Source: Bigelowiella natans CCMP2755 (lineage: Eukaryota > Protista > Cercozoa). Taken from it: a DNA stretch of 64,000 nucleotides. Within the stretch, counting starts at the first letter, position 1; the number at the start of each line of letters is the position of its first letter. The DNA lies in the NCBI GenBank assembly GCA_000320545.1, contig ADNK01000413.1:1-64000 (forward strand). The letters run 5' to 3'. The position numbers and the translations under genes were made by a program. Below are positions 12,639 through 60,270 of the stretch, one piece after another. The notes below the pieces were generated by a model. It ran no database searches and was not told the origin of the DNA. It saw only the letters and a list, made by a program, of their open reading frames with translations.

Positions 12639-12717
<79 letters not shown>

Positions 12718-13985: not shown

Positions 13986-14029
<44 letters not shown>

Positions 14030-14436: not shown

Positions 14437-14470
<34 letters not shown>

Positions 14471-17654: not shown

Positions 17655-17729
<75 letters not shown>

Positions 17730-18873: not shown

Positions 18874-18953
<80 letters not shown>

Positions 18954-19893: not shown

Positions 19894-19939
<46 letters not shown>

Positions 19940-21070: not shown

Positions 21071-21113
<43 letters not shown>

Positions 21114-27723: not shown

Positions 27724-27833
27724 GAAGATGGCCAGGCACCCATGGCAACTTGAGAGGAAGACAGATGATGAAGAAATGAGATCCGCAGCCCGCCAAAATG
27801 TCATGTACGTTCTGCACTAGGAGCATTGATTTT

Positions 27834-29400
27834 TTGTTTCATTGACTGGTTGCTGTGCATGTCTAGCTAGCTAGCGATGTCAGCAGTGCGTCGCACCAGC
27901 TGCCTGTCTGCCATCACGATGTGCAAATGAACGGATGCAATGAACAAAATCAAACTTGTTGAATGTGGTCATCCTCATGATGTAGCTGTCCACGGTGCAA
28001 TGCAGCAGCTACGATGCGCACAGCGCTGCAATGCATCGTAGCCAATGTTGAATTTGCGTAGCCAGGCGCTTTCCAACACTGTGTGTCTTTGGCAATTTGT
28101 CAATTCGGCAAATTGCAATGCAATCACAGTGCTAGTCACCATGAGTCACAGAGGCCATGTTGTCGCACGCAAGCAAAATCCCTGATGTTGTCAACAATGT
28201 GTTCAAATTGTCTCTGCTGTGCAGCAACATGTCAACGACAATGCAACTTGCACTCACAATGTCAATGACAATGTGACTTGTGTTTGCACGATGTGTGTTT
28301 TGAAATCAATGATTCATCAAAGCACATTTTTGTAGGTGCATGCTGATGATTTTGAACAGATGGTGTTTGTGAGAATCATGCATTGTCAACAGCTGTGTGT
28401 GTCACATTGTTGACAATGTGTGTTCAGAACACACACTGCTGCAATATGACGCAGTGTCGACAGTGCATGTTTCATGCAAACTCACAGTGCACTCACGAAA
28501 ACGACAAAATGTCAAATTGTCATGATGTTGGCACGAGGCGGCGCTGCATGCTAGTCCAGCACATGGAGCATGCTGGCATGGTTTGCACGTGAGTGTCAAA
28601 TGTTGTGAGAAGCCACATGATGCATGTGTTGCTGCGCTAGTCCACGCATTGATGCTCGACTGTGCAGTCACAGCGAACACTTGCTAGCCTTGTGGAACAA
28701 CACGCATGCATGCATGTGACGACGCGAACGCGCAAGCGCATGTGATGCATGCATGCACTGCCCATCGCATCGTCACAATTTGGAGCGACATGCAACAATG
28801 ATGTTGCGTCACTAAATGCAACAACGCATTGATGACTTGATGACTGCCATCATGGACCGCGCAATGCAATGACGAATGACGACACGGAACCAAACAACGA
28901 CTGAAAACATAGCTAAATGAAGAGAAGCACGACATTGTGCTAGATCCGTCTTGCATTGTGCTAGCCATGACACGGTTGCATAGTGAGGCAATCTAGCAAC
29001 ACAGTGTCATTGCAAATTTAATGCGTGCATGCAACGTGTAGTTGTCATAAAACCATAGAGACAATGCCCTCATAGCTACGTTGCACATCAGAATCACGTC
29101 GCTGTTGTTGTCATTCTGCGTAAACCAATATGCACTATGGCACACGAAGCTAAGCTCGTGCTACGCGTATGCAGGGTGGCACTACGAATACGATGATGCT
29201 CAGAGATTACAAGTCAACAATCTAGGACGCGGCTGATGTGACGCTAGGGCGTGTCATATGCAGCGAGGCCACACATACATTACACATACTTATAAGTGAA
29301 CCATTTTTAGATGTATGTGCAACTACAGATGCGTGATAGTATCGTAAAAAATGAGTCATAGTTGATTACAAAAAGAGACAATGCGTATAGTAAATATCTA
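27834..29400. mobile_element. Decayed, TpA-depleted insertion flanked by a 13-bp direct repeat
   Basis: GAGCATTGATTTT at 27821-27833 and 29401-29413 brackets a TG/CA-rich, TA-poor tract with no recognisable coding remnant. Confidence 0.45.
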
Positions 29401-29459
29401 GAGCATTGATTTTGGATATGTTAATCCAGATCTAGCCCACGTCTAAACAGTCGTAGAAA

Positions 29460-40859: not shown

Positions 40860-41811
40860 AGCGTGTGTTGCGAGGGTGTGCATTAATTGTTGCCATTTGA
40901 TGTGCACGCTGTCATACAAACGTTGCATGGTGCATGGCATCAATCAGCATAGACGACAATAGCGAGAATTGTGCAATGAGCAGAAAGAGAGGTAATTATT
41001 GTGGCACTCAATGATGCTCGCTACGTGCACACGTTCAGCTACGCTAGTACGCCACGCGCACGCGCATGCACATCGATCATGGCGGCAATTCTATTTGTAT
41101 GCGCAGAACGTTAATTGCGTGCGTGCACATGCTAATGTGTACGTGGAATGCACCAACACGACCAATGATGCAATCGATGAATGCCGCGTGCGCGTTGTTG
41201 ACGCCGACAGCAGGGGCGGGCACGCTAGCTAACAAGCACCGGAGCCTTGCAAGAGCTAGACAGCATGACAGCTGCAAGAGAGACGGACACAATGATCAAT
41301 CAAATTGAATTTGTTCAATGACTGGTCATCCTCATGTAGCTGTGCAGCAATGCTAGAATGCAGCGGCTAAGCGATGATGACAGACACAGTGACATCACAC
41401 ATGCAGAACACAAGTCACATCACAAGTGATCAAGTGACATCATGCACATGGCGGAGGAGCACACATTGCATTCACATGTCCATCATTCAGCGCTGTTGAT
41501 GTCAAATCTGTTGGTCTTCGCTGTGATCGAGCGTGTGACATTTCATGCAACAATGTGTTGTGACGACCACAGCTGTGACGATGGGCAACAAGTGGGGCGG
41601 TGCTCAGTGAGCAGTCTAGCAGTGCTGCTCTGGCTAGCTAGCACTGCTGCAGATTGCTAGATTGCCTGTGCGTGGCTGTCACTTGTGGCCGCCAGCTGGA
41701 GCACTGCAGAGCGCCATGCCAGAGCGCATGCATGCTGCAGCTCGCGGACACGTGCATGCGCATGCACTAGCGCTAGCTAGGACAATCAGCCACATGGAAC
41801 GCGCGTGTGCT
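40860..41811. other. TpA-depleted decayed repeat-like DNA flanking the left TIR
   Basis: Few TA outside CTA/TAG; contains a copy of the short dispersed repeat at 41278-41368. Confidence 0.6.
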
Positions 41812-42169
41812 GCAGCAGACTGCTGCACCATGCCCCACATTTGATTTCCCATCTGCCGTCAGTGGGGGAATGACACAAAATTTTCATTTCAAAAATTCAC
41901 CCACTGACGACCCACTGCTGAACTGAATTGCTAGAATGACATGGCAAAATTGCACGAGCATGACACGTCAAGTGTTCTGCATTTGATTTCCCATCAGCAA
42001 TCAGTGGCAAAATGTGCGAAAATGCGCAACATGAAAGCTTCACCCACTGACGACCTGCTGCTGAACTGAATTGCTGTGATGACATGATGAAAATCACAGG
42101 CACATCCCATGTGTTTTGTGAAAACAATCTTTGTTGAAAATGACATGGCAAAATCCACAGCAGAGCATC
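41812..42169 (+). repeat. Left terminal inverted repeat (~358 bp, with two ~143-bp internal subrepeats)
   Basis: Reverse complement of 60271-60627 with about 26 differences by eye. catttgatttcccatc recurs at ~41838 and ~41980. Confidence 0.92.
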
Positions 42170-42209
42170 GTTGAAAACACTGCAAACTTGTTCTCACGCA
42201 AAGTGATGA

Positions 42210-42941
42210 ATGAGAACATTTGAATCAAAAAAAGGAAAACCATCAGATGAATGGCTGACTGAAAAACAATTTGAATCTTTGAAAAACAAAAGATTTTTGC
42301 ATGTGACATCATCAAACATGGACACACACAAAAGAAAACCCACTGAAGAACTTGTTGTCAAACTTGGGCAAGGTGAGGGAACTCAGCCAGCATCAAGATT
42401 GAAAGATTGCATTTCACATCATGGTTGCACTGACTCCAAAAGACCTTGGATGGGTTGCAAATTGCATTGTTTGTTCGCAACAGAAAAGAATGAAAATGTG
42501 GCAGCAACAAACTCCATGGTTCATGAATGTGAACTCAAATCAAAACAGCATGCTGAAAAAAACAACTTGTTGGTAGACAGAGGCGATGAAAGGACATTGA
42601 CAAGATCAAGTGAATTGATTGGAACATTGGATTGCAAACAATTTGAAAAACTCACAGACATTGAGTCAAAACCTGCATGCAATTTGCGAAATGAAAAGCA
42701 GAAATGCATCGTTGAAATGTCAGACCATGCAAACAAAGCAAAGAAAAATGACCATCAAAAACCTGCTACCTTCAAAGTGAAACACAGTGATGGCAGTGCA
42801 GAAGGAACAATTGGAAATGTGTCACCTAATGATGTCAAATCAAAGAATTTTGACAAGTCATTTAGAGAACATTGTGAAAAATCAAATGACAAAGACAACA
42901 TCAAATTAGAAGATGAACATGTGAAACACCTTGGCATTTGA
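42210..42941 (+). pseudogene. Hypermutated viral ORF, possible T5orf172/GIY-YIG-like nuclease domain
   Basis: FL(H=Y)V...VVKLGQG...PASRLKD(C=Y)...RGDE pattern; zero Tyr in 243 aa. Confidence 0.4.
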
Positions 42942-43133
42942 TCATCTACTGAAACATCATGCACAGCCCATTTTGCATCTTCATCAAAATCAAATGGTTT
43001 TTTCATGATTTGCAATTTGACAAACAAATCACCATTTTCTGTCATCAACAACTTGTCAATTTTTTGCAATTTGTTCATCCTTTCTTCTAATTTTTTTGAT
43101 CGTTTCTCTAATTCCATTGTTTTCAACAAACAT

Positions 43134-43337
43134 TCAATGAGATTTGTTGTCATTGATGACAACAACAAAAATCACTTGCTCACCACACTTTTCAGTTGCC
43201 ATCTCGTGTGCTTCTTTGAAAGTTTCACCTGACACAAGGTTCATTCTCATGGAAGCCATGTGTTTTTTGCCATGATGCTTGCCATGAGCTGCTAATGAAT
43301 CTTTCTGTCTTTTGGTTGATTTTTTTGATGCCATCAC
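43134..43337 (-). pseudogene. Small basic His-rich viral hypothetical protein
   Basis: TKRQKDSLAAHGKHHGKKHM...GETFKEAH resembles a small protein seen in aquatic viruses (recall, not searched). Confidence 0.4.
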
Positions 43338-43352
43338 ATCACTGTGGATTTT

Positions 43353-44084
43353 TCATTTTGACAAAGGAACATCGTGTTTGTCAACCATCTTTTTGTCAAT
43401 GTTGCGAGATGGTCCACCAAACAGAACAGAACACAGACGGGCTCTGCTCCAAGACTCGGCACTTTGATTTGGACGACTTCCTCCAGAACAGTGAGCTCCT
43501 TTGCCTTTGTTCACAATTTCTCTTGAAGATTTCAAAGGAACATCCAAAACTTCAGTCACATTGGATGAGGATGCATCACCTTTGAAACACTTGTCTGCTT
43601 TTTGTGTCCATTTGGATTTCTTGCTTTTGAAACTTCTCAACTTTGGTCTGTTTCTGCCATGAAAAATGCTCTCTGTTTGTTTTTCCCCATCTTTTTTGCT
43701 CAACGATTTGGGCACATGCTTCTCATTGATGCTCATCTCACATTTTTTAACAGCATCTTGAACTGCTTTGCTGTTCATCCATTCACATCCGGCATCTGAA
43801 CCCCACGAAAGCCAAGCCACAGCACCTCTTCTCTCATTTCTTTGTGATTGGTCCATCGGTTTGCCATCATTTTTCCATCTGTCGCATCCTGGTTTAGATG
43901 TGCATTTGTGACGAGCGAACCAAGCATTCACAACAATGACATCTTCAACATCCATGGCATCGTCATGTGCTAATTGTTCAGCTCTTTTCATTCCTGTTTC
44001 AATCGTGCCTTTCCAATTCAGCTTCTTTGATTTCAATGCTATTCGGGCTTTCTTCCTCACTTTCATTGGCATTTTCAATTTCAT
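43353..44084 (-). pseudogene. Hypermutated two-domain viral ORF: phage-like RA.QLA/AW..WG.D.G domain followed by a DUF5824-like giant-virus domain
   Basis: (H=Y)VPKSLSKKD, RPKLRSFKSKKS and KGKGA(HC=YY)SGGSRPNQSAESWSRARL; zero Tyr. Confidence 0.6.
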
Positions 44085-44653
44085 TGTTCAATTTGAGAAG
44101 ATTTTTTGCATGCTTTTCACAAAGAATGTGTTTGTCATGACATTTTTTGATCACAAATCCATCACAGAAGGGACAACACATTTTGAGAATGTGTTTGTCA
44201 CAATGTTTTTTGGTCACAAATCCATCACAGAAGGGACAATGTGTTTCATCGTGTTTCGTTTCATCTTCATGACAATCTCTCGCACAAGCATTGATGCAAT
44301 CTCCATCATCTGTTCCATGTTGTTTCATGTCTCTACCTGGAACATTTTCATTGACACATTTTCTTTTCATTTTTTCTTCAGCTGTTAGTTCTGCTTCTTT
44401 CTTTCTTTTCTGATGAACAGATATTTTTTTGGCATCCTTTTCCAATGACTTCAAAAGGTGAACCTTCAACATTTGATTCATTGCAAGTTCTGCCACCAAT
44501 CTTGACTAATCGGTTGGTGTTGATGTTGCATCCATGACCATTTTTCATCTCTTTGTTTTCAATTTTAGCAAAAAGCTTTTGCAAGTTCTTTTTTTGAAGA
44601 GAACTAAACTTTCTAAATTTTTTCAAAAAACTTTTCATTGTGTCATCAGACAC
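43999..44653 (-). pseudogene. Hypermutated, frameshifted viral ORF with two tandem CPFC..H zinc-finger-like repeats
   Basis: CPFCDGFV(T/I)KK..DKHI occurs twice; 63-bp-period direct repeat at 44123-44243. Confidence 0.5.
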
Positions 44654-45778
44654 ATCATCATCACAGATTAGATTTCTTCAAGTGAGAATTGAACGAATGA
44701 AAATTTGAAAAAAAACCACAGTTTTTTTGAGAGTTTTGAAACGACCACAAAATGGTTCAAAAAGAAAAAATCTGCAGCATCACAATGAGCGAAAATGTTG
44801 TTGGCGGAGCAACTCTAAATCCCAAAGGATTGAACAAAATGTTCAAATCCAAAACTTCAGGATGTGTGAAAGAATGCCACAAAAAGAACTCTCAAAAATG
44901 GCTACGAAAGGCAGAATGCAAAGCCTGCAATTGCATGATTGGATTAGCATCACTGTCTCGTCACAAAAGAACTGAAAAAAACACATGCTCAATGGTGATC
45001 CTAATCCATCCGAAGAGCAGAAAAAATTTGTAGATGATCATGAATGTGTCAAGTTCAGGAAATGCAAATTGGTCAAATTGGAAGAAAAATCAGATTTTGT
45101 CATGAAGAAATCAGAAGAGTTAGGAAACAAAACACAATGAATGCAATTTTGTGATCATCATGATTGCCATCATGATCACAAAATGACATCATGAACAAGT
45201 TGAACATTGACAGTTTTTGTTTCATGACCATTGATGTCATCATTGTGATTGTCAATGTCCTCAAATCCATCATGCCAAGATGGTCCACCACATTGTTCTT
45301 TTTCTTCAACATCTGGTTTAGCAAGACCAAGTTCAATCAATGTGTCTCCATTTTGTCCCTTGTGATTGTCAATGTTCTTCACAAATGCTTCTACAGTTTC
45401 ATCATCAACCTTTGGTTTTGTTGGAACTTTTTCATCCTTGTCATCATTGCTCATCACAACATGACTGTGCATTTCACAATGATTTCAAACGAACATTGAT
45501 CAAATGATGCTGTCATGCCATCAACTTTTTTAGGAACCTTTGGAATTTCTTTTTTCTTCTTTTCCTCCTCTTTCATTTTTGGTTTACGAACATCCTCAAA
45601 ATGTTTCTTGTTGTGTTCACTTGTCTTCTCTTTTTTTTCTTGACATCTCTTCTTTTGGTGTGCTGTCATTTTTTCTCTGTTTGGTTTGTGACATGCTTTT
45701 TGTTTTTCCTCATCAGACATTTGTCAAAACAGTTTGGATTTTTGCATTTGAAAAAAATGATCTCAACTCAATTGACAT

Positions 45779-47008
45779 GTGAGCAATTTGAGAGAAACAG
45801 AAAAAAGGTTCACACGACAGTGGAACAATTGTTTTCCATTGATGGAAGAAGATGGAAAAGGAAATGAAGTTCCAAGTGAAGTCAATGTTGATCATCTTCT
45901 TTGGATGATTTTCAATGAAGACTCCATTGGAGGTGACAGAAAACTTGTGGTGAGAAAAACTGACACTGCGGTGATTGGTCCAATGACAGAAACAAGAACA
46001 CATTTGTCGAACATGGAAAAGAATTCAATCACATGTGCCAATGACAACGGATTTGACATCAGTGATCCAACAGAAGATTCAAGAACACCACCAAGAGCAC
46101 AAACACCGCCAAAAATGACAAGAACACCAGCACCACCACCATCTAGAAATGGGTCAAGATCATCAACACCATCGCCAAGAGGACCAGCACCAAGAGGACC
46201 AGCACCAGGAGGACTAGCACCAGCACCAGCACCAGCACCAGCACCAGCACCAGCACCAGAAAACAGACAACAACAGATGGCACAAGAAGCAAAACTACCA
46301 GCATTAGCAAGATCATCTGGTCGTGATGTTCCAACACAAGCAACACCATCACAAAGATTTGACCAACAACCAGGTTTCAGTCCAACCCCAGTTGTTCCTG
46401 CAACGGCACCTGCTGGATTTGAATCAACACCAGATGACACAGGTGAGAAAAAATTGACAGATTCATCTTTGAAAGAAATGAAAGAACATGATGATTTTCA
46501 GAGACCGCTACCTGATGTTTCAGAAAGACAAAATGCAATCTGTCAGACCAAGATGAGGCAAGGATTGATCCAAGAAGCAACTCATCCATTCGGAGGTAAA
46601 CGTGATGTGACCAATGAATCACAAATCAATTGCAATGCTGATCATGAAAACCCATTCATCAAATCTCAAGCAAGATTGAAGGTGAAAGAAATGGATGACA
46701 CGAGCATCACACACAAACCTCAATTGCAAGAGGCCATTGATGATGCCAAACCATCTGCTAAATTGCCAGCAAAGATGGCCAATGTGAAAGCACTAAAAGT
46801 TGAAGTTCCAGTTGAACCTCCGTTCAAAGCAAGAGGTTTTGATCCAAAGGAATTGCGACCTGCATTTGAAATCAATTGCACTCACGGCATGGTGCCTCAT
46901 CACATGTCTCAAGCATGCAAAAAGAAGAAAGATGAAGTAGCAGATGTGCATGCTGCTCACATCAAATCAAAACAAATGAAAGATGCTTCTGATTTGTTTT
47001 TTCAATGA
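45779..47008 (+). pseudogene. Hypermutated viral ORF with Pro/Ala (GCACCA)n low-complexity linker, unknown function
   Basis: 409-aa ORF with zero Tyr and an APAPAPAP repeat at ~46215-46260. Confidence 0.5.
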
Positions 47009-47033
47009 AAATGACTCAAAGATGTGAACACAC

Positions 47034-47639
47034 ATGAACACAATGAAACATGTGCCAGATCATGCCAAAGGAAAAATTTGCAAACTGCACATGTCAGGAA
47101 ATGAAGATTCAATTTGTCATGGTTCTGCCATTCAAAGTTCAAGTGTGAGATCATCTGGTCATAGAAAAAATTTGAAATGTTGGAAAAAGGGTACAGGTTC
47201 ATTCATGACATCATTTGAATCATTGGAAAATGAAAATGCAATCACAACCCTTGTTGAAAATTTCCCTTGTGATTCTGAACATGAATTAGAAGCCAGAGAA
47301 CGATTTTGCATGGAAAACAACAAATGCATCAATGAAAATGCACCCACAAGAACTGCAAAAGAATGGAGAGAAACAAACAAAGAACGATCAAAACAATGCA
47401 GACAAGATGACAAAGAACGAATGGCAAAACCAAACAAAAAATGTCATGAAGATGACAAAGAATTGTCAAAGGAAAAAAGAAAAGAACACTTTGCGAATCA
47501 CAGAAAAAAGAACAAAGAAAAATTTGAAGAAAAAATCAAATGTCCCTTCTGTGGTTGTTCTGTTGGAAAATCCAATTTGAAAAGACATCAAAGAACCAAA
47601 AAATGTTCAAAAGCACAAGAAGAATTCAAACAAAAATGA
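47034..47639 (+). pseudogene. GIY-YIG endonuclease (NCLDV/PLV type) with C-terminal zinc finger, hypermutated
   Basis: GKI(C=Y)KL...I(CH=YY)GS...R..GH, LVENFPCDS..EL.ARERF(C=Y) and CPFCGCSVGKSNLKRHQRTKKC. Confidence 0.8.
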
Positions 47640-47665
47640 ATGTTTGAAATGATTGTCGTTTCATT

Positions 47666-48451
47666 GTGATTGTCATCATCCATTGCAATCACAATGTGAC
47701 CAATTCTGAAAAGGGCAAATGCAAAAAATTAGACATGAAACCAACAATGACAACCAAAAAAAAACAGATCCACAACAATTGCAACTTGACACCTTCGTTT
47801 CCAAACAGATGCTCATTCACAGCTCCAACAGGAAGTGGAAAATCAGTGGTGATGGCAAATTTGTCAACTCGTAAAAGACATTCAAGAAACTTCTTTGATG
47901 TTGTTTTGTTTCACTCTCCAAACGTTCACTTTGAAGACGAACGTGCAGAAACAAAGGCAAAAAATGAAAAAGCAGAAATGAAATTTGAAGAAAAGTTCAA
48001 AGAGAAAGAGTTTGGAGCCATGGTTCATGAAGTGATGCGAGAACAAAAAGAACTAAAAGACAAAAAGAAACACATGAAAAAAACATTGACAATCATTGAT
48101 GATTTCGCTTCAGATGAAAAAGTGATGAAAAGTGAAACATTGAAAGATTTGTTCTTTGCTGGTGGAAAATGTGGTGCATGTGTTTGGATCACCAGTCAGT
48201 GTTGCAAAATTGTTTCTCCTGATGTTCGCACAAATGCCGAACATTTGATTGTTTTTAGCAGACAACCTTCAACTGAATTGAAAAAGATGGCTGAAGAAAT
48301 GTCAACAGGCAAATGCACTGAGAAAAAAATTGTGGAAACACTTGATGAAATGTCTTCTGTGGATCATTCATTTCCACATTGCAATCGCAAGCAACCAATG
48401 AATGAAAGGTGCATGATCAATTTTCAAAGTTTCATGAACATCCAAACATGA
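47666..48451 (+). pseudogene. A32/FtsK-HerA-type viral genome-packaging ATPase, hypermutated
   Basis: Walker A APTGSGKS; Walker B TIIDD; LFFAGGK...WITSQ..KIVSPDVRTN motif region; zero Tyr in 261 aa. Confidence 0.85.
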
Positions 48452-48707
48452 TCAATGTGGATGAACTTTTGCCAGAATCACATTCAAAAAAATCAGGAAC
48501 AAATCATCATCATTTGACAGTCGTCCAAAAAAAAACAGCAAATCCTTTTTCACATTCAAAAAAATCAGCTGTCATGGTCCCAGCTGTCAAACCTGCTGGT
48601 TTTTTTGCGAGAGAATTTGTGAGAAAAGAAGTGCCTGTGAGCATCAAACGAACATTTGAAAGGTGTCAAATGTCAATTAATTGTCATCTAAACGTTGACA
48701 ATGACAC

Positions 48708-49271
48708 ATGGGAAATGACAATTCTTCACCACCAAAACCAAAACCAATCCACATTCCAAAGCCACATTTTCCAAAACCAAAACCAATGCATGTTCCAAGA
48801 ATTCCCACAGAAAAAGCAACTAAGCCTGTGAACAAAGGAACAAAAAAAGGAGCAAATCATCTTGAAGACAAACTGACACATCCAGTTGCTGCTGCAAATG
48901 AAGCTGAAGGAGCATTGAGTGAATTGGATTCTGTGTCTCACGGCAGTCTTGGTGTTGTGCATCAGGGATCTCAAGTTGTGTTTCCACAATTTGGATTGGC
49001 CGTCACATTGGCCACTGTAGCAGATGAAATGGCTCACAATGATGGTGAGTCATCAAAAAAAACATCAAAAAACATCTCATCAAATCAGGCTACAGGAGGT
49101 GTTTGTGGTGATTGTCAAAGTGTCAGAACCATTGAAAAATCAGAGCTTGTGACTGAAATGGAAAACAAATTCAATGCAGATTCACACGACTCACCAGATG
49201 TTGATGGAGCAATTCCAGTTTCTGTGGAAGGCAAAATTTCTGTTGATGATGCGACCAGAAAACTCAGATGA
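48708..49271 (+). pseudogene. Hypermutated viral ORF, unknown function (MGN start, PK repeats)
   Basis: 187-aa ORF preceded by TCTA at -21; zero Tyr. Confidence 0.5.
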
Positions 49272-49683
49272 ATCACTTTTTCTCATCTTCTTTGATTTCA
49301 GGACTTGGCAGAAATGTTCCAAGTGTCAGAATGACAACGTTTGAAAAAGCATTTCTTTCTGCTACATTTTTTGCTGTTGCAACTTGAAGCACACTGAATG
49401 TTGAAACACTGAACATTGCACCAGATTTCAGGAAAAACTCTGAAGCCCTTTTGTCAGAAGTTGAACAACAAGACTGGTGAGCATCAATGTGTTTTTCATC
49501 CTCTGATTCTTTTCTGTGTGGCATCTCTTCCATCATTCTGTCTTTGCATTCTTCAGAATCATTCATGTCTGCAACTTTTTGTTGTTTTTCATCTGCTTTG
49601 TGTTCGATGGATTGTGGAACAATCATTGCAAACAGTCACAAACAAAATGCCACAATGATTTTTTTTCTGTTCTTGTGATGACA

Positions 49684-50578
49684 ATGGGATCATTTGATGA
49701 GATGAAAGATGGATTCAAAAAGGCTGTTAATGATGTGCAAAAATCATCAGGGCATGCAACAAAGCAAATCAAAAAAGACTTCACAAAAGCAGGAGATGCT
49801 GTCAAAGATGTGTCTGTCATGGCAGGTGATGAAATCAAAAAAGGAGCCCATGAAGTTGGAGATCAACTGAAAAAACAAGAAGTCCAACAGGCACTCGCAG
49901 GGACTGGAATTGCTTTAGCTAATGTTGCTACTGGAGGGGCATTTGCTCCAGAATTAATGGCAGGTGGATTAGCAATTCAAGGTGCCATTGAGTCAGCACA
50001 TTCAAAATCTTTACCTCATGACACTGTGCTGCAGGCAGGAACCGCATGTGCCACTGGTGAATTAGATTTTAACAAAAGAGGACCAGGTGTTGGTTCATTT
50101 AGCGAAGGTATTTCTAATTTGAGAGAAGAAGGTGTGAAACGATTTGATGGTGTTGAAGATGAATTATCAGATGAAGCTATGAAAAGACATGATGATGTAA
50201 AAGGCAAAGCATCAGCAAGATTAGGATTTGATCCAACACAAATGCAATCTACAGATGAAGCTATGGATTCATTAAAAGCACAAATTGACAAAAATAGAAA
50301 TATTAGAGCAACAGCTAATGGATTTAAGAAGTGGAAAAGCATTAGAAAATTTAACAAACAAAGCAAAAAGTGAATTAAAAAAAGAAGTAAGTAGTCAAGG
50401 CAATAAAATACTAAATGATGTTTTAGGTAAAGTGTCTCAAAAGAAAAGCAAAGTGAAAAAAGCCATGAAAAAAGTTAAGAAGAAGATGAAATCTTCTAAA
50501 GGCAAAATGGCTGATGTCATTAAAAAGGTGAAACAAAATCAACAGAGATACAGAATGTCAAGTGGCATTGTGAATTAA
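49684..50578 (+). pseudogene. Viral ORF with Gly/Ala hydrophobic segment and basic C-terminus, probably frameshifted near 50290-50370
   Basis: MGSFDEMKDGFKK...ALAGTGIALANVATGGAF; the overlapping ORF 50285-50578 continues with K-rich sequence. Confidence 0.45.
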
Positions 50579-50646
50579 AAAAAAAACACATCATGAAAAA
50601 ATTACATTCGTTTTGATACAATTTTTTTCATCTACACATTGTTAAC

Positions 50647-52311
50647 ATGGATGCAATTAGTGAAACTACCGATGTTAGTAGATTTCCAGAAATCGACTAC
50701 AGTTTACCCCCTATGGATAAAATTTTCATTGATTCAGTCTCTCATTTTAGAGAAGAGATGAAAAATAGTAACAATGCTAAAAAAGCGAATACCAAAATGA
50801 GATTTTTTGTTCCAGCTCAACAAAGAGCAGTAGACCCATCTGAATTACATTTTCAATTAAATGTTGCTGCCAGAACAGCTGGAGATGCTGATTTACCAGC
50901 GGTTGACCAATTAAGATTAAGACTTGCTGAAGGTGGAGTTCATTCTCTCTTTAGAGAGATGATCATTAGAGATGGTAGAGGTAACATCATTGAAAAAATT
51001 AACAACTATGACCTTGTTACTAAAATTTTACAAGATACTTTGTTGACTAAAGAAGTTAAAAATAATTTGTTAAATGTGGAAGGTGTTCATGATGACCAAG
51101 GATTGTTCAACACAGTTCATAGCAAATTTGATATTACTGGTAACACCTTAGAATTAAAAGCACCTGTGGCTCAGGTCGTAGCTGATACTCTTCCAGCAGG
51201 TGCGGCTGATTTTCCCGCAGCCAATGCTGCTCCTGTTGCTGCTGTGACCACTCCCGCTTCACCATCAAGAGTACTTGGTGTAGGAACTCAATTCTTAACT
51301 GAACTAAGACCAGGTTCTGTTGTTAAATTCAATGGAAACAGTTACACAGTTGCCCATGTTGTATCTGACACAGAATTTGTATCTGCTACTAACATTGCTG
51401 CTGATGTTGCTGCTGCTAACATTGTTGCTGGTAGAGATTTTGTTGAAGGATTACTTGAAACAGAAAGTCGTTACAAAAAATTCCATCACGATGGACTTTT
51501 TACAGCAGATGGAGCTGTTCATTGCTTTCAGCCATGCTGCTCTGGGTTTTCATCTCAAAACAAATACCTTCATCTTGATCATTGTGGTGGGTTAGAATTT
51601 GAATTTACTTTAGATAGCAATGCCATGATTTTCGATGATGCTAATGCAGCAGGTAATGCCAATATTTTCATTAAACAAGGATATGTTCATCACACTGCTC
51701 TTGAATTTTCACCAGTTGTTGAAGCTGCTCTTGCTAAAGCATATGTGAGAGGTTTATCTATGAGTTTCCCTGTGTACCATGTAGTTAGTGGAACACAAAA
51801 TGCTTCTACCTCTGTTTCTCAGGAATATCAAGAAAGTTTAGCAATTCTTGAAATGGTTAAAATTGTTAGTAGACCAACTGGGTTTGATGCAAATGCTGGA
51901 GCATCATTTTTCTTTGAAGATCTAACCAGTGCTAAAAGAATTTACTGGGAGATCAACAAACAAAGATTTACTGAGTGTGGCAATGATGACATTTTACCTC
52001 AAGTTGTTTTTGTGAACAACAGAATCGGTAAAAATCTATTAGGAGATTACAAACATGCTACAATTTCTTATGGAGAATTCAAAGAAGCAGGTAAATCTGC
52101 TTTAATTTTCAATGCGCAAAACTACAAAGAAGGTAATTACACAGGAGTTAACACCAACCGAGCAACTATGAGACTTAAAATTGAAGGAGGAGATGGTGTT
52201 GGTTCTTTACAACCTGGTATTGCTAATCAAGGTAGACAAATCGATGTGTTAATGATGCACGAGCAATACATTATGTTAAAAGATGGAGAAAGTGTGACAG
52301 TTCGTAGCTAA
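50647..52311 (+). CDS. Major capsid protein (PLV double jelly-roll type) with internal insertion
   Basis: MRFFVP...VDPSELHFQLNV and GGVHSLFREMIIRDGRGNIIEKINNYDLV match the N-terminal PLV MCP pattern; 554 aa; lies directly upstream of the penton-like gene. Confidence 0.78.
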   Translation: MDAISETTDVSRFPEIDYSLPPMDKIFIDSVSHFREEMKNSNNAKKANTKMRFFVPAQQRAVDPSELHFQLNVAARTAGDADLPAVDQLRLRLAEGGVHSLFREMIIRDGRGNIIEKINNYDLVTKILQDTLLTKEVKNNLLNVEGVHDDQGLFNTVHSKFDITGNTLELKAPVAQVVADTLPAGAADFPAANAAPVAAVTTPASPSRVLGVGTQFLTELRPGSVVKFNGNSYTVAHVVSDTEFVSATNIAADVAAANIVAGRDFVEGLLETESRYKKFHHDGLFTADGAVHCFQPCCSGFSSQNKYLHLDHCGGLEFEFTLDSNAMIFDDANAAGNANIFIKQGYVHHTALEFSPVVEAALAKAYVRGLSMSFPVYHVVSGTQNASTSVSQEYQESLAILEMVKIVSRPTGFDANAGASFFFEDLTSAKRIYWEINKQRFTECGNDDILPQVVFVNNRIGKNLLGDYKHATISYGEFKEAGKSALIFNAQNYKEGNYTGVNTNRATMRLKIEGGDGVGSLQPGIANQGRQIDVLMMHEQYIMLKDGESVTVRS

Positions 52312-52428
52312 TTTCATTTTTCTATCAATCATTCCAATCCTTTGGGATTTGGAGTTGCTTCGCCAACATTTGTTGTTAAATTCCACCAAAATTTATATCA
52401 TGAAAATTTATTTCTAATATAAATTAAT

Positions 52429-53145
52429 ATGAAACAACACAAAATTTATTTTAATAGCAAAGATAGAATTACTGGAACAACCAATAATTTAAATTATCAA
52501 TTAAATAGTGTAATTGATAATGTATCTTCTATTTCTATTACAAGAGCAAGATTTCCAATTACTTGTTACAATGTGTCAGCTAAAAATAACATTTTAGAAA
52601 TTGAGAATAGTTCTGGAAACAAAACAAGTATGGAATTAACAAAACAAAATTATGGTGCTACTGAATTAGCAACAGAATTACAAACTAAACTTTCAACTAA
52701 TGCCTCAACAGTAGGAACTTTTACTCCTGTGCACAATGCTAAAACAGGAAAATTTAGCACAGGTTGTAGTAATAGTTTCAAAATAATTAAAAACGAATGC
52801 TCTAAATTTTTAGGTTATAATGACACTACACCTCTTTCTACATTGCATGTAGCAGATAATATGAGTAATCTATCACCAAAACCTGTTTACATTCAAACTG
52901 ATTTACAACTGGATACAGAATTAGCAGGTCAATTGTCAAGTGTTGTGCATGAAGTCTCTGGCGATGTGTCTTTTGGTAGTATCTCATATGATAATGAGAA
53001 ACCAAGTGAAAGGATTGAATTAATGAAAAAAAAGAATGTAAGCAACTTAAAATTTACACTTGTAGATGGTAATGGAGATGAAATAGAAAATAATGGTACA
53101 GATCATTCTATGATGGTATCTTTGTTTTGTCAGACTAAGGAATAA
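52429..53145 (+). CDS. Minor capsid (penton-like) protein
   Basis: IYFNSKDRITGT..L...IDNVSSISI..ARFP...YNV...NN, NY...ELA.ELQ and LKFTLVDGNG..IENNG.D.S match PLV/virophage penton patterns. Confidence 0.75.
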   Translation: MKQHKIYFNSKDRITGTTNNLNYQLNSVIDNVSSISITRARFPITCYNVSAKNNILEIENSSGNKTSMELTKQNYGATELATELQTKLSTNASTVGTFTPVHNAKTGKFSTGCSNSFKIIKNECSKFLGYNDTTPLSTLHVADNMSNLSPKPVYIQTDLQLDTELAGQLSSVVHEVSGDVSFGSISYDNEKPSERIELMKKKNVSNLKFTLVDGNGDEIENNGTDHSMMVSLFCQTKE

Positions 53146-53175
53146 GAAAAAAATATCTAATCATTATTAATAAAA

Positions 53176-54738
53176 ATGAGTGTTAGTATTACAGGTGAAA
53201 ACATCCCTAACCCTAATGTATCTGGTGGAACAAACAATGATAACAATTCTTCAGCAGGAGGCATAGTTGGGATTACAAGCAATTCGAATGACATTAATTT
53301 TGATGAAGGAGTTTCTGTGAATGGCATAAAATTTCAAAACACAGGAAACCAAAACGGACTTTTTATGGGTGTTGATTTGTCTGGTAATTCGTCTATGGAA
53401 ATGGTCTCTCCAACAACCTACATTGATTTTGTACATCAATTAGGTTCTGATTATACGAATCGTGTTCTGTCAAAAAATGACGGTATTCACTTCACAGGGG
53501 ATTTACACATGGGCATTATTAGACCTAATTATGTATCTTCAAGTACAATAACATCTACGAATGGAACTTTTAATGCTATTAATTTAGACGGTGTCCCTTT
53601 GAATCCAAGAAATTGTTTAGTTCACGGGATTACATCTGACATTGTAAGTGGAAACATGAAATTTACTATGAATTCTAATTTTCAAGAAAAATTAACAACA
53701 TTAGGCGATTATGATCTGTCAAACAAAATAACAAATGATGCTACAAATGGTTTGATTGTTAATGCTAATAATGTTAATGATGCAAGTGTTTTATCAACCA
53801 AAGTATCAAAATTTTCTTCATCTGTATCAGGAAAAGAACCAAAAATATTAAGTATTGACAATGATTTACAATTAGCTAATCATTCAGGTACACCTCAAAT
53901 GCGATTCAAAGATAACAGTGGCAATGTTCAAATTTCATGTAATGAATTAGAGTTAACAGATAATGTAGGGGAGGTAAAATTAAAGATCTTAGAAAAAATA
54001 AATAATGTAGAAACAAAAACAACAACAACAGAAAACAAACTTAATCCAATTACTTCATCTAACAACGAACATCAATTTTCAAGTTCCATTTTTGTAAATG
54101 GTTTGAGAAGCACAACACAACCTCATATCGATGGTATTCATTTAGGAAAAGATGTTCATAATGGTAGTAGCATTGAATTCGTTAGTCCAACATGTTACAT
54201 TGATTTCGTTCATAACAATTCAGGGACAGATTATGCGAATCGTATTTTATCCAATAATGATGGAATTCACATCACAGGGGATTTGCATGTTTTCAATACA
54301 AAAATTGCTGGAGATGTTACATTTCAAGGTTCATTGTTATCGAACACATTGACAGATTTAACAAATGGATTAAATGCAATTGAAGCATTAGCTATGAGCA
54401 ATAGCAACAATGTTCAAAATGGATTTAGCAATGTAAATGTCCCTATTGTAAGAGTCATTAATAATTCATCTACTGTTGTTTTCTTTGAAAGTGGTAATCA
54501 GCCACCTTTTTACAATCCTCGTGTAGAAAATGGTAAATCTACCGTTTTAGAACATGCTTCAAATGTTGTGTCATTAAATGTTCGTTCATCATCTCCATCA
54601 TGTAATTCATTTAATCTCACAGCAGACAAAGCAGTTAGCATAAATTCTGGTTCTGATCCTAATATGCCAACTGGGGCACAACATAGAATCGAATTGAATG
54701 GTCTGAATTTTGTAACCTTTACAATTTTCAATCCATAA
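53176..54738 (+). CDS. Asn/Ser/Gly-rich putative virion fibre protein with a duplicated ~50-aa module
   Basis: SSMEMVSPTTYIDFVH...DYTNRVLSKNDGIHFTGDLH is repeated as SSIEFVSPTCYIDFVH...DYANRILSNNDGIHITGDLH. Confidence 0.6.
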   Translation: MSVSITGENIPNPNVSGGTNNDNNSSAGGIVGITSNSNDINFDEGVSVNGIKFQNTGNQNGLFMGVDLSGNSSMEMVSPTTYIDFVHQLGSDYTNRVLSKNDGIHFTGDLHMGIIRPNYVSSSTITSTNGTFNAINLDGVPLNPRNCLVHGITSDIVSGNMKFTMNSNFQEKLTTLGDYDLSNKITNDATNGLIVNANNVNDASVLSTKVSKFSSSVSGKEPKILSIDNDLQLANHSGTPQMRFKDNSGNVQISCNELELTDNVGEVKLKILEKINNVETKTTTTENKLNPITSSNNEHQFSSSIFVNGLRSTTQPHIDGIHLGKDVHNGSSIEFVSPTCYIDFVHNNSGTDYANRILSNNDGIHITGDLHVFNTKIAGDVTFQGSLLSNTLTDLTNGLNAIEALAMSNSNNVQNGFSNVNVPIVRVINNSSTVVFFESGNQPPFYNPRVENGKSTVLEHASNVVSLNVRSSSPSCNSFNLTADKAVSINSGSDPNMPTGAQHRIELNGLNFVTFTIFNP

Positions 54739-54782
54739 TTCGTTTAGAATGAAAAAAAAATACATAGTCATATTGTAATCAT

Positions 54783-55163
54783 GTGGATAATGTTAGTAAT
54801 GTTAGAGAAACTTTAAAAGGTTATAGAGTTACACAATTGAAAGAATTGTGTCGTGAAGTAGGAACATCTCAATGTGCCAGAAACAAAAAAACTTTAATGG
54901 ATAGATTGACACCTATAGTTCTAAAAAGTGCTGGATATGAAGTCGTTTCTATTGAAAAAGAAGAAGAGGTAAAAAAACCAGCTAAAAAAATCAAAAGAGT
55001 TCCAGTTAAAAATAGTGTTAAAAAGAAAGAAGAGGAAAAAGTAGAGGAAGAAAAAATTAGTCTTGAATCAAAAGAAGATAGTAATGATGAAAAAGTAAGC
55101 ATAGAAATAGAAGAAGATGGTAATGATGAAAGTTCAGTAACAGAATCAGATGTAGAAAATTAA
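54783..55163 (+). CDS. Small SAP-like motif protein with acidic tail
   Basis: YRVTQLKELCREVG...NKKTLMDRL resembles SAP/HeH DNA-binding motifs. Confidence 0.45.
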   Translation: MDNVSNVRETLKGYRVTQLKELCREVGTSQCARNKKTLMDRLTPIVLKSAGYEVVSIEKEEEVKKPAKKIKRVPVKNSVKKKEEEKVEEEKISLESKEDSNDEKVSIEIEEDGNDESSVTESDVEN

Positions 55164-55355
55164 CTCTGTTCATGTAATGGGAGGAACAATAATTGTTTTA
55201 TTAACTTTAGGTGCATGTGTGATGATTGGACACATATTTGGTAGAGTGTCGGCATCAATTACTGATTTAGACCCTACTAACGATTATTTGATTGTGAATT
55301 AAAAAATTATTTTTTTGAAATTTTGTTTATAAAAATTATCTAAATCTTTATAACT

Positions 55356-55964
55356 ATGAGTTCTTCTACCGCACATTTCCGTAATTCAGTTTTAATTGAT
55401 GGATTACTTACCGGTCCTACCATTGTTAGAATAGACACCGAAAAAACTGCTGTTCTCAGCAGTCTTAATCAACAAATTTCTGACTTTCAAACAGCAGAAA
55501 CAAACAATGCTCAAGCAAGAGCAGATTTGCAAAATCAAATTGATGATGCTAATGCTTCTATGACTCAGGCTATGGGTGATTTAACCCAACTTGTTAATGA
55601 CAACAAAGCAGACATTGAAGGTAAATTAGCAACAGAAACTAATGAAAGACTTTCATTAGCAAGTGAAGTAAGCAACAGAAATGCATTTGTAGATGGTGAA
55701 ATTACCAGACTTGACCAACAACATGCTGATGATGATGCTAGACTTGCAGCTGTTGAAGCAACACAAGCTACTTTTAATTCAGATGTGGAATCTAAAATTC
55801 AAGAGAGAATTGATGCTCACAATGCTGATCTTGATAATACCCTTCCTCGTTTAGCAAAATTAGAAGAGTGTTTAGAAACAGATGAATCTGATCCTGCTAA
55901 TCCAGTCGTAAGAATTAAAGGAGGTGTTAAATTTGAAGTAAGTGGTGATTTCGTCCAAGGTTAG
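55356..55964 (+). CDS. Coiled-coil putative virion fibre protein
   Basis: Heptad-like Q/D/A-rich helix; C-terminus VRIKGGVKFEVSGDFVQG; TCTA at -17. Confidence 0.55.
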   Translation: MSSSTAHFRNSVLIDGLLTGPTIVRIDTEKTAVLSSLNQQISDFQTAETNNAQARADLQNQIDDANASMTQAMGDLTQLVNDNKADIEGKLATETNERLSLASEVSNRNAFVDGEITRLDQQHADDDARLAAVEATQATFNSDVESKIQERIDAHNADLDNTLPRLAKLEECLETDESDPANPVVRIKGGVKFEVSGDFVQG

Positions 55965-56011
55965 ATTGCAAATGTGATTTAAACAACATATAAAAAATCT
56001 AACAATTAATA

Positions 56012-56258
56012 ATGATGTCTAATATTAAAAGGTGGTGGTGCTTTTTTCAAAGAAACACCTGCAATAGCAAACAATGTAGTAGGTCAAACAATAGATACTA
56101 TTAATCAACAATTAAACGATAATAATACACAAAACACAGAAAATAAATTACAACTTGATTTTTCAAAAGAAGTTTTTATAATAGACAAAGAAAACAAAAC
56201 TATTACGATAAATCCTGAATGTAAACTCATTGTGCCTAATGATTTAATTCAAGGATAG
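56012..56258 (+). pseudogene. Short paralog of the preceding ORF, frameshifted after the start (not in the ORF track)
   Basis: The frame reads KGGGAFFKETP...TITINPECKLIVPNDLIQG*, ending like ...SGDFVQG*. The ATG is out of frame across an A-run. Confidence 0.45.
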
Positions 56259-56297
56259 TTCGTTTAAAAATAGTATAGTTTTTTGTAGTCATAAGTA

Positions 56298-56490
56298 ATG
56301 ACTATAAGAAAAGTGTATTTTTATGGATTAACATGTTTAAATACAAGAGAAACATATATAGGTTCTACTACTATGGATCCAAAATTAAGATTACAAATGC
56401 ATGTCGCTAATTTTAGAGCACATGAAAAAGGTTTTGGTAATTTTTGCTCTTCGTATCAAATTTTAAAAAGAGATAATTATATGTTTAAAG
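56298..56490 (+). pseudogene. N-terminal half of a GIY-YIG endonuclease, truncated
   Basis: VYFYGL...TYIGSTT...RLQMH...CSSYQIL, followed by an abrupt switch to helicase sequence. Confidence 0.7.
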
Positions 56491-57744
56491 TTAAACAACG
56501 AATGTAAATACATAAGAAAATTTGATATTTCACCACATGATGTTATATGCTTTGATGAGGTTTATATATATTCACTACATCAACTATCAAAAATTAAGTT
56601 ATTTATGGATAAGCATGTTGATAAAAAATTTATTGCTACTGGTGATTTAGCTCAATTGGATCCCATTGAAAACGAATATCTGTTTAACAACATCAAAGAC
56701 CTTGATGTTAGAACAACTGAAGCTATGAATGATATGTTCCCTAATCAAATCACTCTTAAAATCTGTAAGAGAGTAAAAACAGACGAGGAAAGAAATACTC
56801 TTGCACGATTAAAACAAGAAATATTTGATGTAAAAACTAAACCATTTGATGTGCTAAAAAAATATTTTAAAGTTGTTGAAAGTATGGATAAAGTAAAGAC
56901 TCTTAACAATATTACCTTCTACAACTTTAGATCCCGTTCAGTAGGTAAGTATATCCACGGTCTACAATAGAAACCGAGAAAAAAAGTTTATGTAGATGGT
57001 ATTTGCTACTATGCTGGTATGGAGATTGTGTGTAAAAAATATAATAAGAAACCAAAACTATATGTGAACTATGCTTATGAAATTGTTAAAGTAAGTAAAA
57101 AAGAATTTGTAATACAGGATGTATGTGATATGGAAGAAATAAGAATTCCTATAGAATTAATTAGTAAGCATTTTAGATTATCATATGCCTCTACCTGTCA
57201 TAGTTTCCAAGGATTATCAGTAGATGGCCCTATCACCGTATTCGATACTAACACCTGTAGAATTAATCGCAAGTGGCTCTGGACTGCTATAACTCGTTCA
57301 ACTGACCTATCACAGATACAAATATATCAGCACAGCGATAAAGAATGCTACAGATTAAAAGAAAGTATGATTTCTCAAAAACTACGAATGAAAGTATCTT
57401 CATATGAATCTCAGGACAAAAGAGCTGGTAGAACTTGGAAAGATAAAGAACATATTGATGAGGAATGGATAAAAAGAACTGTTAATAATCATCCACAATG
57501 TCCTGTGTGTAGATGTGGATTTACTGCTGATAATGTTTCTGTGGATAGAATTGATAATGCTCAACCTCATCTGTGGAATAATTGTAGATTGACTTGTGTG
57601 GAATGTAATCTTAGTAGAAATAATCAACAGACTTACCCAGCATTTGGTGAGTACACCCCTCAGGATGTTGAGTTTGAAGATGGCTTTGAGGATCAATGGG
57701 TGAAACCTGGGTACGAAAACACCATCACTGGGCTGGAGCTTTGA
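56491..57744 (+). pseudogene. C-terminal fragment of an SF1 helicase plus HNH-like domain (PLV replication protein), with in-frame stop at 56968-56970
   Basis: VICFDEVY (Walker B), ATGDLAQLDPI, YASTCHSFQG, WTAITRS, then CPVC...VDRIDNAQPH..NNCRLTCVECN. Walker A is absent. Confidence 0.78.
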
Positions 57745-57991
57745 GGCATCGTGTGCCCCGAAAATTTGACATTTAATGTCTTTGCCACATCAGCCACACG
57801 TGTCAGTTCTTCACCGGAGACTCTCCCCGCTGCTGGGCATTCCGGGATGAAAATGGGAGTCCCTAATCTTCGGACACTAACGGACACTAACGGGCAATAC
57901 CGGTAATACTCCCGGTAATGCTCTTTCCGGGGATTCGCCGCAACGAGAGTCTCCCGTGAAGATCTTCACTCCAGACTCGAAATCAGACTCG

Positions 57992-60183
57992 ATGAAGCGT
58001 AGTGGATCTTTTGACGAGAAAAGGAAGGTAGATGAAAGAATCCCTAGCAGGAGAAGTTCGAAAGCACAGGTACTTATCCTACGAGGCTTGCGTTCGGGAG
58101 CTTAAGCTTTGATGTGTTCTCAGCGTTCTGAGGTATGGGGAAATCAGATGGACTCTATTAGCAAACAAATCGAGAAATTGAGGGATGAAAGAAAAGCTTT
58201 GAGCATCGCTTGGGCAACGGAGAAGAATAAGGAGAAAGAAGAGGCGCTCAAGGGTGCTATTGACAAATTGGACGAGGAAATTCAGGCGAAGGAGGCAGAA
58301 CTGAAGGAAACGATAAAGAAATTCGAGGAGGCAACCCAAGGTTATGAATTCTGTTAACATCTGAGGAAACAATCGGTGTGCTGAGATATTTTTGCGTGTG
58401 TGTTCAGCCATGGAAATTGAGGAAAGCGGCAGGGGGGGTGATGCCCAATGTCTCTGTGCAAATAATCCATTGTTCTAATTTTATTGTGATTTGATTTCAG
58501 GGGAGAAACGCAAAAGCATATCGGATTACGAACGAGGAAGCGAAACAAAAGGTGACTAGACTCATCCTCTCTAAGTATCTGTTTGATAGTCCCGCTTTAC
58601 GTGGATACACAGGCAAACGATTCAAGATTGACACGGATGCCGAAGAATTTTTCCAAGCTTTGAGAGACACTCCGTTCACAAAAGGGACTGCAATGCAGCT
58701 GGTGCGCATAACGAAGAACATCCTCGTACCTGGGCATCGTGCTAGTTGGATTCGGGGGTCCAGGCACCCTGTTACTCTTTTCTACCGCAAGGCATTTTCA
58801 GAAGCAGTACGCAGATTTCGAGAATGTTATCAACTTCGCCGTGAGGGAAAGTCGAGCATTGATTGCTGTATACTCTCTGGGCAAAGTGGTATAGCCAAGA
58901 GTGTGGCCTTTTTGCTAACGTACATCAAGGTGGCGCTTAAAAATGACGAGAAGGTTGCGTTCTATTCCGTGCCAGAGGGTATCCTTTACTGCATCTACGT
59001 CGAGAACGGTACAGTCAAGTGTTCAACATCTGTAGTTACCCCCTTAACATTCCACAGTGAAGAATGGAAAAGCTTTGACTCTACTTCGACACACCTTGTC
59101 GTCGATCCCGAGAACGGATTCGGGCACCTAAATGTCAACATCACAAAAGCCTTTGTGGTAGTGGCAAGCTCGCCCAATAAGGAGTGGAAGCAATTCGAGA
59201 AACTCCTTAAGGCCGGAACGAAGAAGCGGGATCTCACCTTGTATGCGGATGTCATCCAAGAAGATGAATTCAACGATATTTCTGCGGGAAACAATGAGAG
59301 TGGCGGGGCGGATGGAAACTGTACTGTCAAGGGCTTAAAAAGCCGATCCGAGATAGCCGGGGGGATGTTGCGGCACATTGTGGACGAGCAAAAGTTCAAG
59401 AAGTTTCAAGACTCCCAAGACCACATGTTGCGAATGTTTCAGGGCAAGATTGGCGAAAACGTGGAGATGATACAACCTAGGGATGTCGCTTTACCAAGTT
59501 CCGTGTTCTGCATCCGCCCCATTCTTAAAGACGGTTCGCACACTAGTTCGGATTTTGTCCTGGATTTCCTGAGCCCTTATGTAGAATCCAGAGTGGTAGG
59601 GGCGCTTGCCGAGGAACAGTCTAAGCAGAGTGAAAGTATGTCTGGTTTAGAGGCAGAAAGAAGGTGGTTTCACCTCATAAAGAATGGGGGAAATTTTGAA
59701 GGCCGACATGTCGGCTCACATTTGCCAGAAGAATTGAAAGGCAAGACTATCACTGTCTCATTTAGTCGACACAAACGAGTGATTCACCATCGCGAAAATA
59801 GTAAGGAAGAAAAGAATAAGTGCTTGGAGGAAATCCGCGAATTGAAGGATTCGAGCACGCTGGTCATTTGCCCTCCGAACTACACAAACATAGATGGTGC
59901 TTCAAGTGCTGAGGTGCTGCATCAGATGGCTAAAGGAAATGTTCACGACTTTAAAGTCAAACACAAAGACGAGGTTCTTGTGGATACGAAAGTTGTCACG
60001 ATTTACTACTACACTTTGGAGAAGCATTATCATACATTCCGTGTGAATTTCGTTTACAAAGACGTGTCAAAATCTGACCAGGAAGCGTGGAAGAAAACCT
60101 GGCACAAGCACTTGAGGTTCGTAGTCGTAAAACTCGATCCGGTAAGATTTTGGGATAAATTAAAGAAAGCACTTGGAAAATGA
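57992..60183 (+). CDS. Crinkler/RHS-like effector gene (N-terminal coiled coil, P-loop NTPase, REase-like C-terminus), spliced, inside the TIRs
   Basis: ILSGQSGIAKSVAFLLTY, LVVDP, VVVASSP, GGMLRH and PPNYTNIDG...HQM...H motifs; GT-AG intron 58070-58123 joins in phase. The splice path into 58501 is not fully resolved. Confidence 0.6.
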
Positions 60184-60270
60184 AAGCGAAATCCGAAAGG
60201 TTAAAGCGATCATTAGCGATGAGTGAGGCGCACACTACTGTGGCTAGAATTCAAGATGTAGCGATGACGT

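Follow-up and report, generated by a model that had tools for sequence, protein, structure and literature searches.

The Polinton-like viruses of the PLV-Bnat family in Bigelowiella natans were reportedly first named transpovirons by Blanc et al. in 2015. Base-composition bias is not discussed in the main passages and supplement of a description of this family (Krupovic et al. 2016, PMC5499653). In the same species, de novo TpA → TpG/CpA hypermutation has been documented in an NCLDV region and in a virophage region (Mettrop et al., bioRxiv 10.64898/2026.01.13.699255, 2026). The main text of this preprint describes 124 TA-depleted clusters in B. natans, presents the NCLDV target as single-copy, and proposes an ADAT2-like deaminase as a hypothesis; it also discusses the preference of ADAR, APOBEC, and TadA-type deaminases for a 5' T/U. 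A literature search at listing level found no other papers on a TpA erasure process, and the accessible part of the paper on ApT 6mA (PMC12695648) holds no mention of this lineage.

The locus described here lies in a 64,000-nucleotide stretch of contig ADNK01000413.1 of B. natans CCMP2755, analysed as a whole and termed the window. It resembles the regions of Mettrop et al. in the species, in the TpA → TpG/CpA change, in the foreign nature of the target, and in its regional clustering. Unlike the de novo changes reported there in NCLDV and virophage DNA, the changes here are historical and fixed, and they lie in a Polinton-like virus. Nine consecutive 1-kb segments (41001-50000) fall within the cluster cut-offs of Mettrop et al., applied through our own implementation of Rho, and the domain may well be in their Table S10. 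The terms CTAG, polinton, inverted repeat, flanking, and trinucleotide do not occur in the main text of the preprint, which thus leaves the edges of domains and any preference for flanking bases undiscussed; its Table S10 may include the locus, and its Fig. 2B and Table S2 (231 de novo mutations) a wider motif. Context-biased deamination as an antiviral defence is also a feature of ADAR/APOBEC hyperediting and of TadA-type DNA adenine deamination, but at the present locus kilobases of chromosomal double-stranded DNA serve as the substrate, and the enzyme is hypothetical. Fungal RIP makes CpA → TpA. It shares with the present locus dinucleotide-specific transitions that ruin mobile DNA in regional tracts and on both strands; its polarity, however, is opposite, the direction found here being the reverse of C → T at CpA.

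The element and the genes to which the text refers are the following.

41812..60627, no strand: Polinton-like virus (PLV-Bnat family), integrated, 18.8 kb long, with an internal rearrangement, TIRs, MCP, and ATPase
41812..42169, + strand: left TIR, 358 bp, with two internal 142-bp units and 1 TA; other copies diverge before 41812
60271..60627, - strand: right TIR, 357 bp, with 12 TA, 11 of these in CTA/TAG context
43353..44084, - strand: DUF5824 protein, 243 aa, 0 Tyr
43999..44446, - strand: C-terminal half of a split GIY-YIG gene, heavily edited (TA at 4/92 sites)
47034..47639, + strand: GIY-YIG nuclease, 0 Tyr, Atlas score of 0.96 to GIY-YIG clusters
47666..48451, + strand: A32-like packaging ATPase, 0 Tyr, whose relatives match Pox_A32
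50647..52311, + strand: major capsid protein (MCP), lightly edited, 11/15 outgroup-conserved Tyr kept
52429..53145, + strand: minor capsid protein (mCP), matching PLV-Bnat26_10 by eye
56298..56493, + strand: N-terminal half of the split GIY-YIG gene, TA-rich (25/45 sites), Pfam GIY-YIG E=7.7e-5
56494..57744, + strand: C-terminal remnant of an SF1 helicase with an HNH tail, matching UvrD_C_2, its 5' part missing and with one internal stop
58552..60183, + strand: Crinkler/RHS-like cargo gene of host-like composition, ~5-6 near-identical copies, Atlas 0.98
63697..63999, + strand: host ribosomal protein L26 exon, 100/100 aa identical to a B. natans protein, the next named relatives being chlorarachniophytes

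Judged from its protein sequences, the element is a PLV-Bnat Polinton-like virus, because the MCP, the mCP, and the HNH tail match PLV-Bnat26 sequences in the supplement of PMC5499653. By eye, the two capsid proteins match PLV-Bnat26_9 and _10 (Fig. S1 of PMC5499653), and the helicase HNH tail matches Bnat26 (Fig. S4). With PLV-Bnat, as presented in the main passages and supplement of that paper, the element shares the MCP, the adjacent mCP, the A32-like ATPase, GIY-YIG, the 243-aa hypothetical protein, the SF1 helicase with its HNH tail, and the TIRs. The present copy differs in that its GIY-YIG gene is split, its helicase truncated, and its genome half-edited. Gene models on two other B. natans scaffolds show 83-84% identity to the MCP, and the ATPase is 76% identical to a gene model on another scaffold. 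The assignment of the MCP, including its double jelly-roll fold, rests on PMC5499653; the model predicted here (pLDDT 34.8) is too poor for a fold search. At positions ~160-235, the MCP profile has an inserted domain with matches to repeats of numerous large proteins. The edited ATPase of the window matches generic ATPase models only, and the nuclease at 47034..47639 has no Pfam GIY-YIG match. The Tlr1-like SF1 helicase is represented by its C-terminal remnant only, and contigs of other copies show loose ends before 56494. The rearrangement at 44446/56493 has divided the GIY-YIG gene and cost the helicase its 5' part; in another copy, 56493 and 44446 are directly joined, on opposite strands. 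Neither an integrase nor a polymerase gene could be recognised in the element, Rfam gave no match in the window, and viral and metagenome contig collections yielded no locus for the DNA of a free viral relative. On the host side, an intron-rich flagellar dynein heavy chain gene occupies ~4000-22700 on the minus strand, with B9-domain and kinase genes nearby.

Global alignment of the left TIR with the reverse complement of the right TIR reveals 26 differences in 358 columns. At 11 of these, a TA of the right copy faces TG (8 columns) or CA (3 columns) in the left copy, and the reverse is never found (sign test for the 11:0 polarity, p=0.001). The only TA of the left TIR lies in a CTAG. Both the alignment and the recount agree with a first-pass annotation of this DNA, which had noted about 26 differences in 358 positions, 11 right TA facing left TG/CA with none reversed, and 1 TA (in CTAG) in the left TIR against 12 in the right. 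The transitions are concentrated in TA: among the A/T bases of the right copy, 11/24 inside TA differ by a transition, vs 4/186 outside (Fisher p=4e-9), and none of these four lies in an AA/TT context. The remaining 15 differences comprise 8 other transitions, 6 transversions, and 1 gap; they are mostly clustered and bear no relation to TA. One of the 11 TA sites, at 42076, sits among three adjacent differences. TG outnumbers CA in the TIR (8 vs 3), CA is above TG in the domain described below, and gene content differs between zones. The edited left copy is real sequence and no assembly artefact, because single-copy-depth contigs match the edited window copy without any other letter in 4/4 DNA runs, at ~41324-41855 (to 41830 in one run) and at 46921-47995.

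The sequence comparisons make the direction TA → TG/CA near certain. Within the TIRs, both right 142-bp units read CCTACT, and the left units read CCCACT and CCTGCT. Other genomic copies of B. natans are visible as collapsed contigs of a multicopy family, and as proteins. The first-pass annotation had considered that a consensus of these copies might reveal TG/CA as ancestral; they carry instead the right-TIR letter at 6/11 sites, with 47, 65, 92, 92, 51, and 48% of the summed contig depth in run X1, depths that pool many short repeats, lean toward the copy used as reference, and are not copy counts. At the remaining 5/11 sites, no TA allele appears in other copies at the 15% listing threshold. 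A 20-kb comparison with other copies gave 2043 difference rows, of which the 40 best supported fall inside (15) or outside (25) the domain. Of the 15 inside, 12 have TG/CA in the window vs TA in the other copy, and none shows the converse; 2 more are partner rows belonging to the CA outcome, and the last is a transversion. Among the 25 outside, 9 run one way, 5 the opposite way, and 11 are unrelated. Furthermore, copies show discordant TG/CA outcomes at 44491-92, 44503-04, and 52113-14, and a TA ancestor is therefore needed.

The proteins point in the same direction. Compared with four outgroup proteins, the ATPase has lost 6/6 conserved Tyr (4 to Cys, 1 to His, 1 to Phe), and TA edits could produce 29/36 of its changes at columns conserved in the outgroups, with 0 reachable only by the reverse. 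Two other B. natans MCP copies keep 0/14 conserved Tyr, vs 11/15 for the MCP of the window, and at the same column one of the two often has Cys where the second has His. MCP relatives outside B. natans contain 2.4-6.3% Tyr in 30/30 examined, namely 4 close ones and 26 chosen from 150 listed matches for similarity beyond the inserted domain. In the domain, 10/10 of the listed ORFs that were examined lack Tyr and terminate at TGA. In protein P0129, which belongs to another copy in B. natans, the MCP frame continues into the minor capsid protein, as a lost TAA stop would explain.

In the opposite reading, the right TIR would have gained its TA through RIP-like CpA → TpA mutation. All 11 sites formally fit C → T at CpA, yet this reading is hardly credible: TA is ancestral according to the internal repeats, the other copies, RNA reads (see below), and the outgroup Tyr, and the discordant pairs between copies demand a TA ancestor. 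The outgroup proteins rule it out. The direction TA → TG/CA advanced in the first-pass annotation is thus upheld by the internal repeats, the other copies, and the loss of Tyr relative to outgroup proteins.

Beyond the TIR, the TA loss extends over a domain with a sharp inner edge, and similar zones occur elsewhere in the window.

41144..50063, no strand: heavily edited domain bounded by changepoints; TA share of TA+TG+CA 0.038 vs 0.31-0.32 on either side
41144..41811, no strand: left flank, a multicopy TA-poor dispersed host repeat; 13/13 surviving TA are CTA/TAG; at most 17 contigs at 41319
60184..61050, no strand: short edited zone across the right TIR and its flank; TA at 2/111 easily edited and 30/85 CTA/TAG sites (counted to 61000)
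27780..29000, no strand: second TA-depleted repeat region, non-viral, 1.2 kb; CTA/TAG survival 20/85 vs 2/249 for other sites

The TpA observed/expected ratio is 0.05-0.13 at 42-50 kb vs 0.5-0.87 at 50-60 kb, and editing is found on both strands. The changepoints fall at 41144, ~670 bp outside the left TIR, and at ~50063. The right edge, at 49.9-50.06 kb, is inside ORF 49516-50373, and gene order continues normally across it. This inner edge is compatible with a step or with a ramp whose scale does not exceed 200 bp; from 400 bp upward, ramps fit worse by at least 6 log units. Editing outside the TIR is no proof of in-place spreading, because the flank repeats are TA-poor elsewhere too (27.8-29.0 kb). 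This second region directly follows a long host ORF and contains a dispersed repeat motif common to both virus flanks and ~34.5-35 kb. The host ORF (1241 aa, 23998-27723) ends in a long array of 15-bp repeats, and its TpA drops toward the end that adjoins the edited repeat.

The split GIY-YIG gene bears on how the domain arose. Its half inside the domain and its half outside differ strongly in TA (4/92 vs 25/45 sites, p=2e-11). The depth of editing does not change at the 44446 junction, beyond which TA stands at 8/107 sites. Since the two halves are edited according to their present position, editing in place after the rearrangement is favoured, and in-place editing of the domain is likely. 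Against this reading, the edge is described no worse by an abrupt step, such as a recombination breakpoint would leave, than by a ramp of 200 bp or less. The locus could accordingly be a recombinant, formed in the cell or in the assembly, between an old, fully edited left copy and a younger right copy; the mutator would still be real, the edge would be the breakpoint, and the TIRs would stem from different integrations. This is decidedly unlikely. Fully edited copies do exist, a clean target-site duplication was not found, and many of the 15 non-TA TIR differences are clustered, some of them common to about half of the other copies. Against it, both junctions of the GIY-YIG rearrangement are present here, one per zone, so that the donor would need the same rearrangement, and gene order is normal through an edge that lies in an open ORF. 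Among the matches listed, no contig bridging the edge was read out.

The data support that the left TIR received more edits than the right after the two separated. Easily edited TA remain at 1/51 and 0/52 sites in the two TIRs. Only 2 discordant TG/CA sites are seen between them, vs ~8-10 expected under independent editing that started at the TA level of the viral core (p ~0.001). So most of the TA deficit of the right TIR predates the split, is native, or was homogenised later. The TG at 41863-64 is common to both TIRs, and other copies have TA there in 73% of the depth. The first-pass annotation had proposed that both TIRs were edited after integration, the left more heavily; the data bear this out in part, for the excess in the left after separation but not for substantial post-integration editing of the right. 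It had also derived a ctgc/ccac pair at ~41977 from an ancestral ctac. The pair is present, at 41978-79, inside a 5-bp cluster holding four differences; the ctac ancestor found no support, other copies listing no TA allele at 41978/41979 and the sister unit reading CCAC in both TIRs. A second discordant CA/TG pair, overlooked at first, is located at 42041-42. Candidates for a target-site duplication amount to 5-6 bp with 2-3 transitions, and joining the flanks did not yield a single empty-site repeat. The lack of a clean duplication, together with the 15/26 TIR differences unrelated to TA, leaves a single integration unproven.

The TA that escaped editing show a marked flanking-base context. 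CTA/TAG-type sites survive at 47/516 in the domain, 13/63 in the left flank, and 30/85 at the right end, vs 7/1184, 0/111, and 2/111 for the other sites. Host genes are without such skew (137/575 vs 179/884, p=0.12). Relative to the viral core, CTAA/TTAG and CTAC/GTAG survive at ~26%, and other non-CTAG contexts at 2%; ATAG/CTAT behaves as easily edited (2/167 survive). In the MCP, edited Tyr columns number 0/3 in CTA context and 5/16 in others, a small sample from which 3 Phe columns were left out. Rather than resistant sites, the survivors might be TA regenerated by later cytosine deamination in CAG/CTG. CTAG accounts for 10/15, 14/18, and 11/16 of the C_G sites in edited repeats, vs 10/66 in host genes, and CpG is also low in the element. 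The failure of ATAG/CTAT to survive argues against regeneration, as do the CTA/TAG-context TA of the TIR, which are common to both units, hold 65-92% of other-copy depth at 41864, 41902, 42006, and 42076, and look ancestral. Regeneration is rather unlikely as a general account; a change of CAG into TAG stays in contention above all for the CTAG sites of the repeats. The low CpG spans the viral part at 42000-57500, with observed/expected ratios of 0.29 and 0.39 vs 0.89 in host genes, the edited and lightly edited zones being alike.

Concerning the chemistry, adenine deamination is favoured, on the pattern of base changes, with a hypothetical enzyme. As TpA is palindromic, however, the sequence does not separate A from T as the target, and T → C and A → G at TpA could also arise from thymine-directed chemistry (a modified T in TpA) or from a polymerase (error-prone patch synthesis). 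Polymerase eta makes A → G at WA motifs. A polymerase of this type would be expected to touch AA, but AA is untouched, and 0/4 of the non-TA A/T transitions in the TIR lie in AA/TT. In the accessible part of the preprint, all GC-biased mutations in viral regions fall on TpA (Mettrop et al., bioRxiv 10.64898/2026.01.13.699255), which also argues against this alternative. Taken together, the thymine-directed and polymerase-driven routes are improbable. The specific WA signature of a polymerase eta-like enzyme is ruled out by the unchanged density of AA (126.8 vs 128.1 per kb).

One spared part is the cargo gene. It has host-like GC and CpG, is not heavily edited, and displays no CTA/TAG context skew. 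Its region (58.5-59.9 kb) reaches a depth of 430-520 vs ~80 for single copy, with 5 other letters in 1029. In fungal RIP, by contrast with this locus, near-identical repeats such as these 5-6 copies would not be spared heavy editing. Because this near-identical multicopy region is spared here, and the NCLDV target of the preprint is single-copy, sequence homology alone does not trigger editing. In a B. natans-labelled RNA run, of which ~6 in 100 reads were read and 208 short reads aligned, 41 reads end loosely in poly(T) at TIR position 42114; 16 reads continue into right-end-type sequence. At that place, the reads carry the right-TIR letter in 83/112 and 59/93 cases. This points to a polyadenylated transcript that terminates in a right-type TIR and may come from this or another copy or strain; the near-identical multicopy cargo gene is apparently transcribed and polyadenylated within the TIR, and transcription may protect from editing. 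The TIR parts at 41916-41943 and 42112-42153 reach summed contig depths of 20000-30000 vs ~80 for single copy, which suggests that TIR derivatives, solo or non-autonomous, form a family of high copy number.

In the reading that is probably correct, this Polinton-like virus of B. natans lost nearly all TA to TG/CA over its left 8 kb, including the left TIR, likely through a host deaminase that acted on the adenine of TpA in place, in a silenced chromatin domain. The adenine would be converted to inosine and fixed as G, yielding TG on the edited strand and CA when the other strand was hit. The domain may have nucleated at a flanking dispersed repeat or at the TIR, and editing would have spread inward over ~8 kb and halted at a chromatin boundary, largely sparing the transcribed right end. 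The outcome would be a dead left half, with an ATPase and a nuclease deprived of Tyr, through a defence working like RIP with the opposite polarity. A bolder extension, tentative and with the balance against it, is that B. natans possesses a DNA adenine editor whose reach is set by chromatin: it would begin at dispersed repeats or viral ends, cover ~9 kb, end at an edge of nucleosome scale, leave transcribed cargo alone, and produce a footprint in which CTAG, CTAA/TTAG, and CTAC/GTAG are resistant; Polinton-like viruses with already edited TIRs would still have given new insertions. If true, this resistant footprint could be used to identify the editing enzyme.

The locus is a genuine record, with clear polarity, of a process and a virus family that were both known before, and it newly constrains the targeting and the context of the enzyme. 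It adds the sharp-edged domain, the CTA/TAG survivors, the position-dependent GIY-YIG halves, and the spared multicopy gene, details absent from the main text of Mettrop et al. The TpA mutator of B. natans was reported in 2026 ahead of any known enzyme or targeting rule, and the locus supplies constraints on both. Any candidate deaminase must reproduce the flanking-base hierarchy, with ~26% vs 2% survival; the sharp intragenic edge can be compared with chromatin maps; and sequence homology is insufficient to trigger editing. The list of targets is widened to Polinton-like viruses and non-viral repeats, and viral gene models of B. natans that lack Tyr call for caution, as edited relics.
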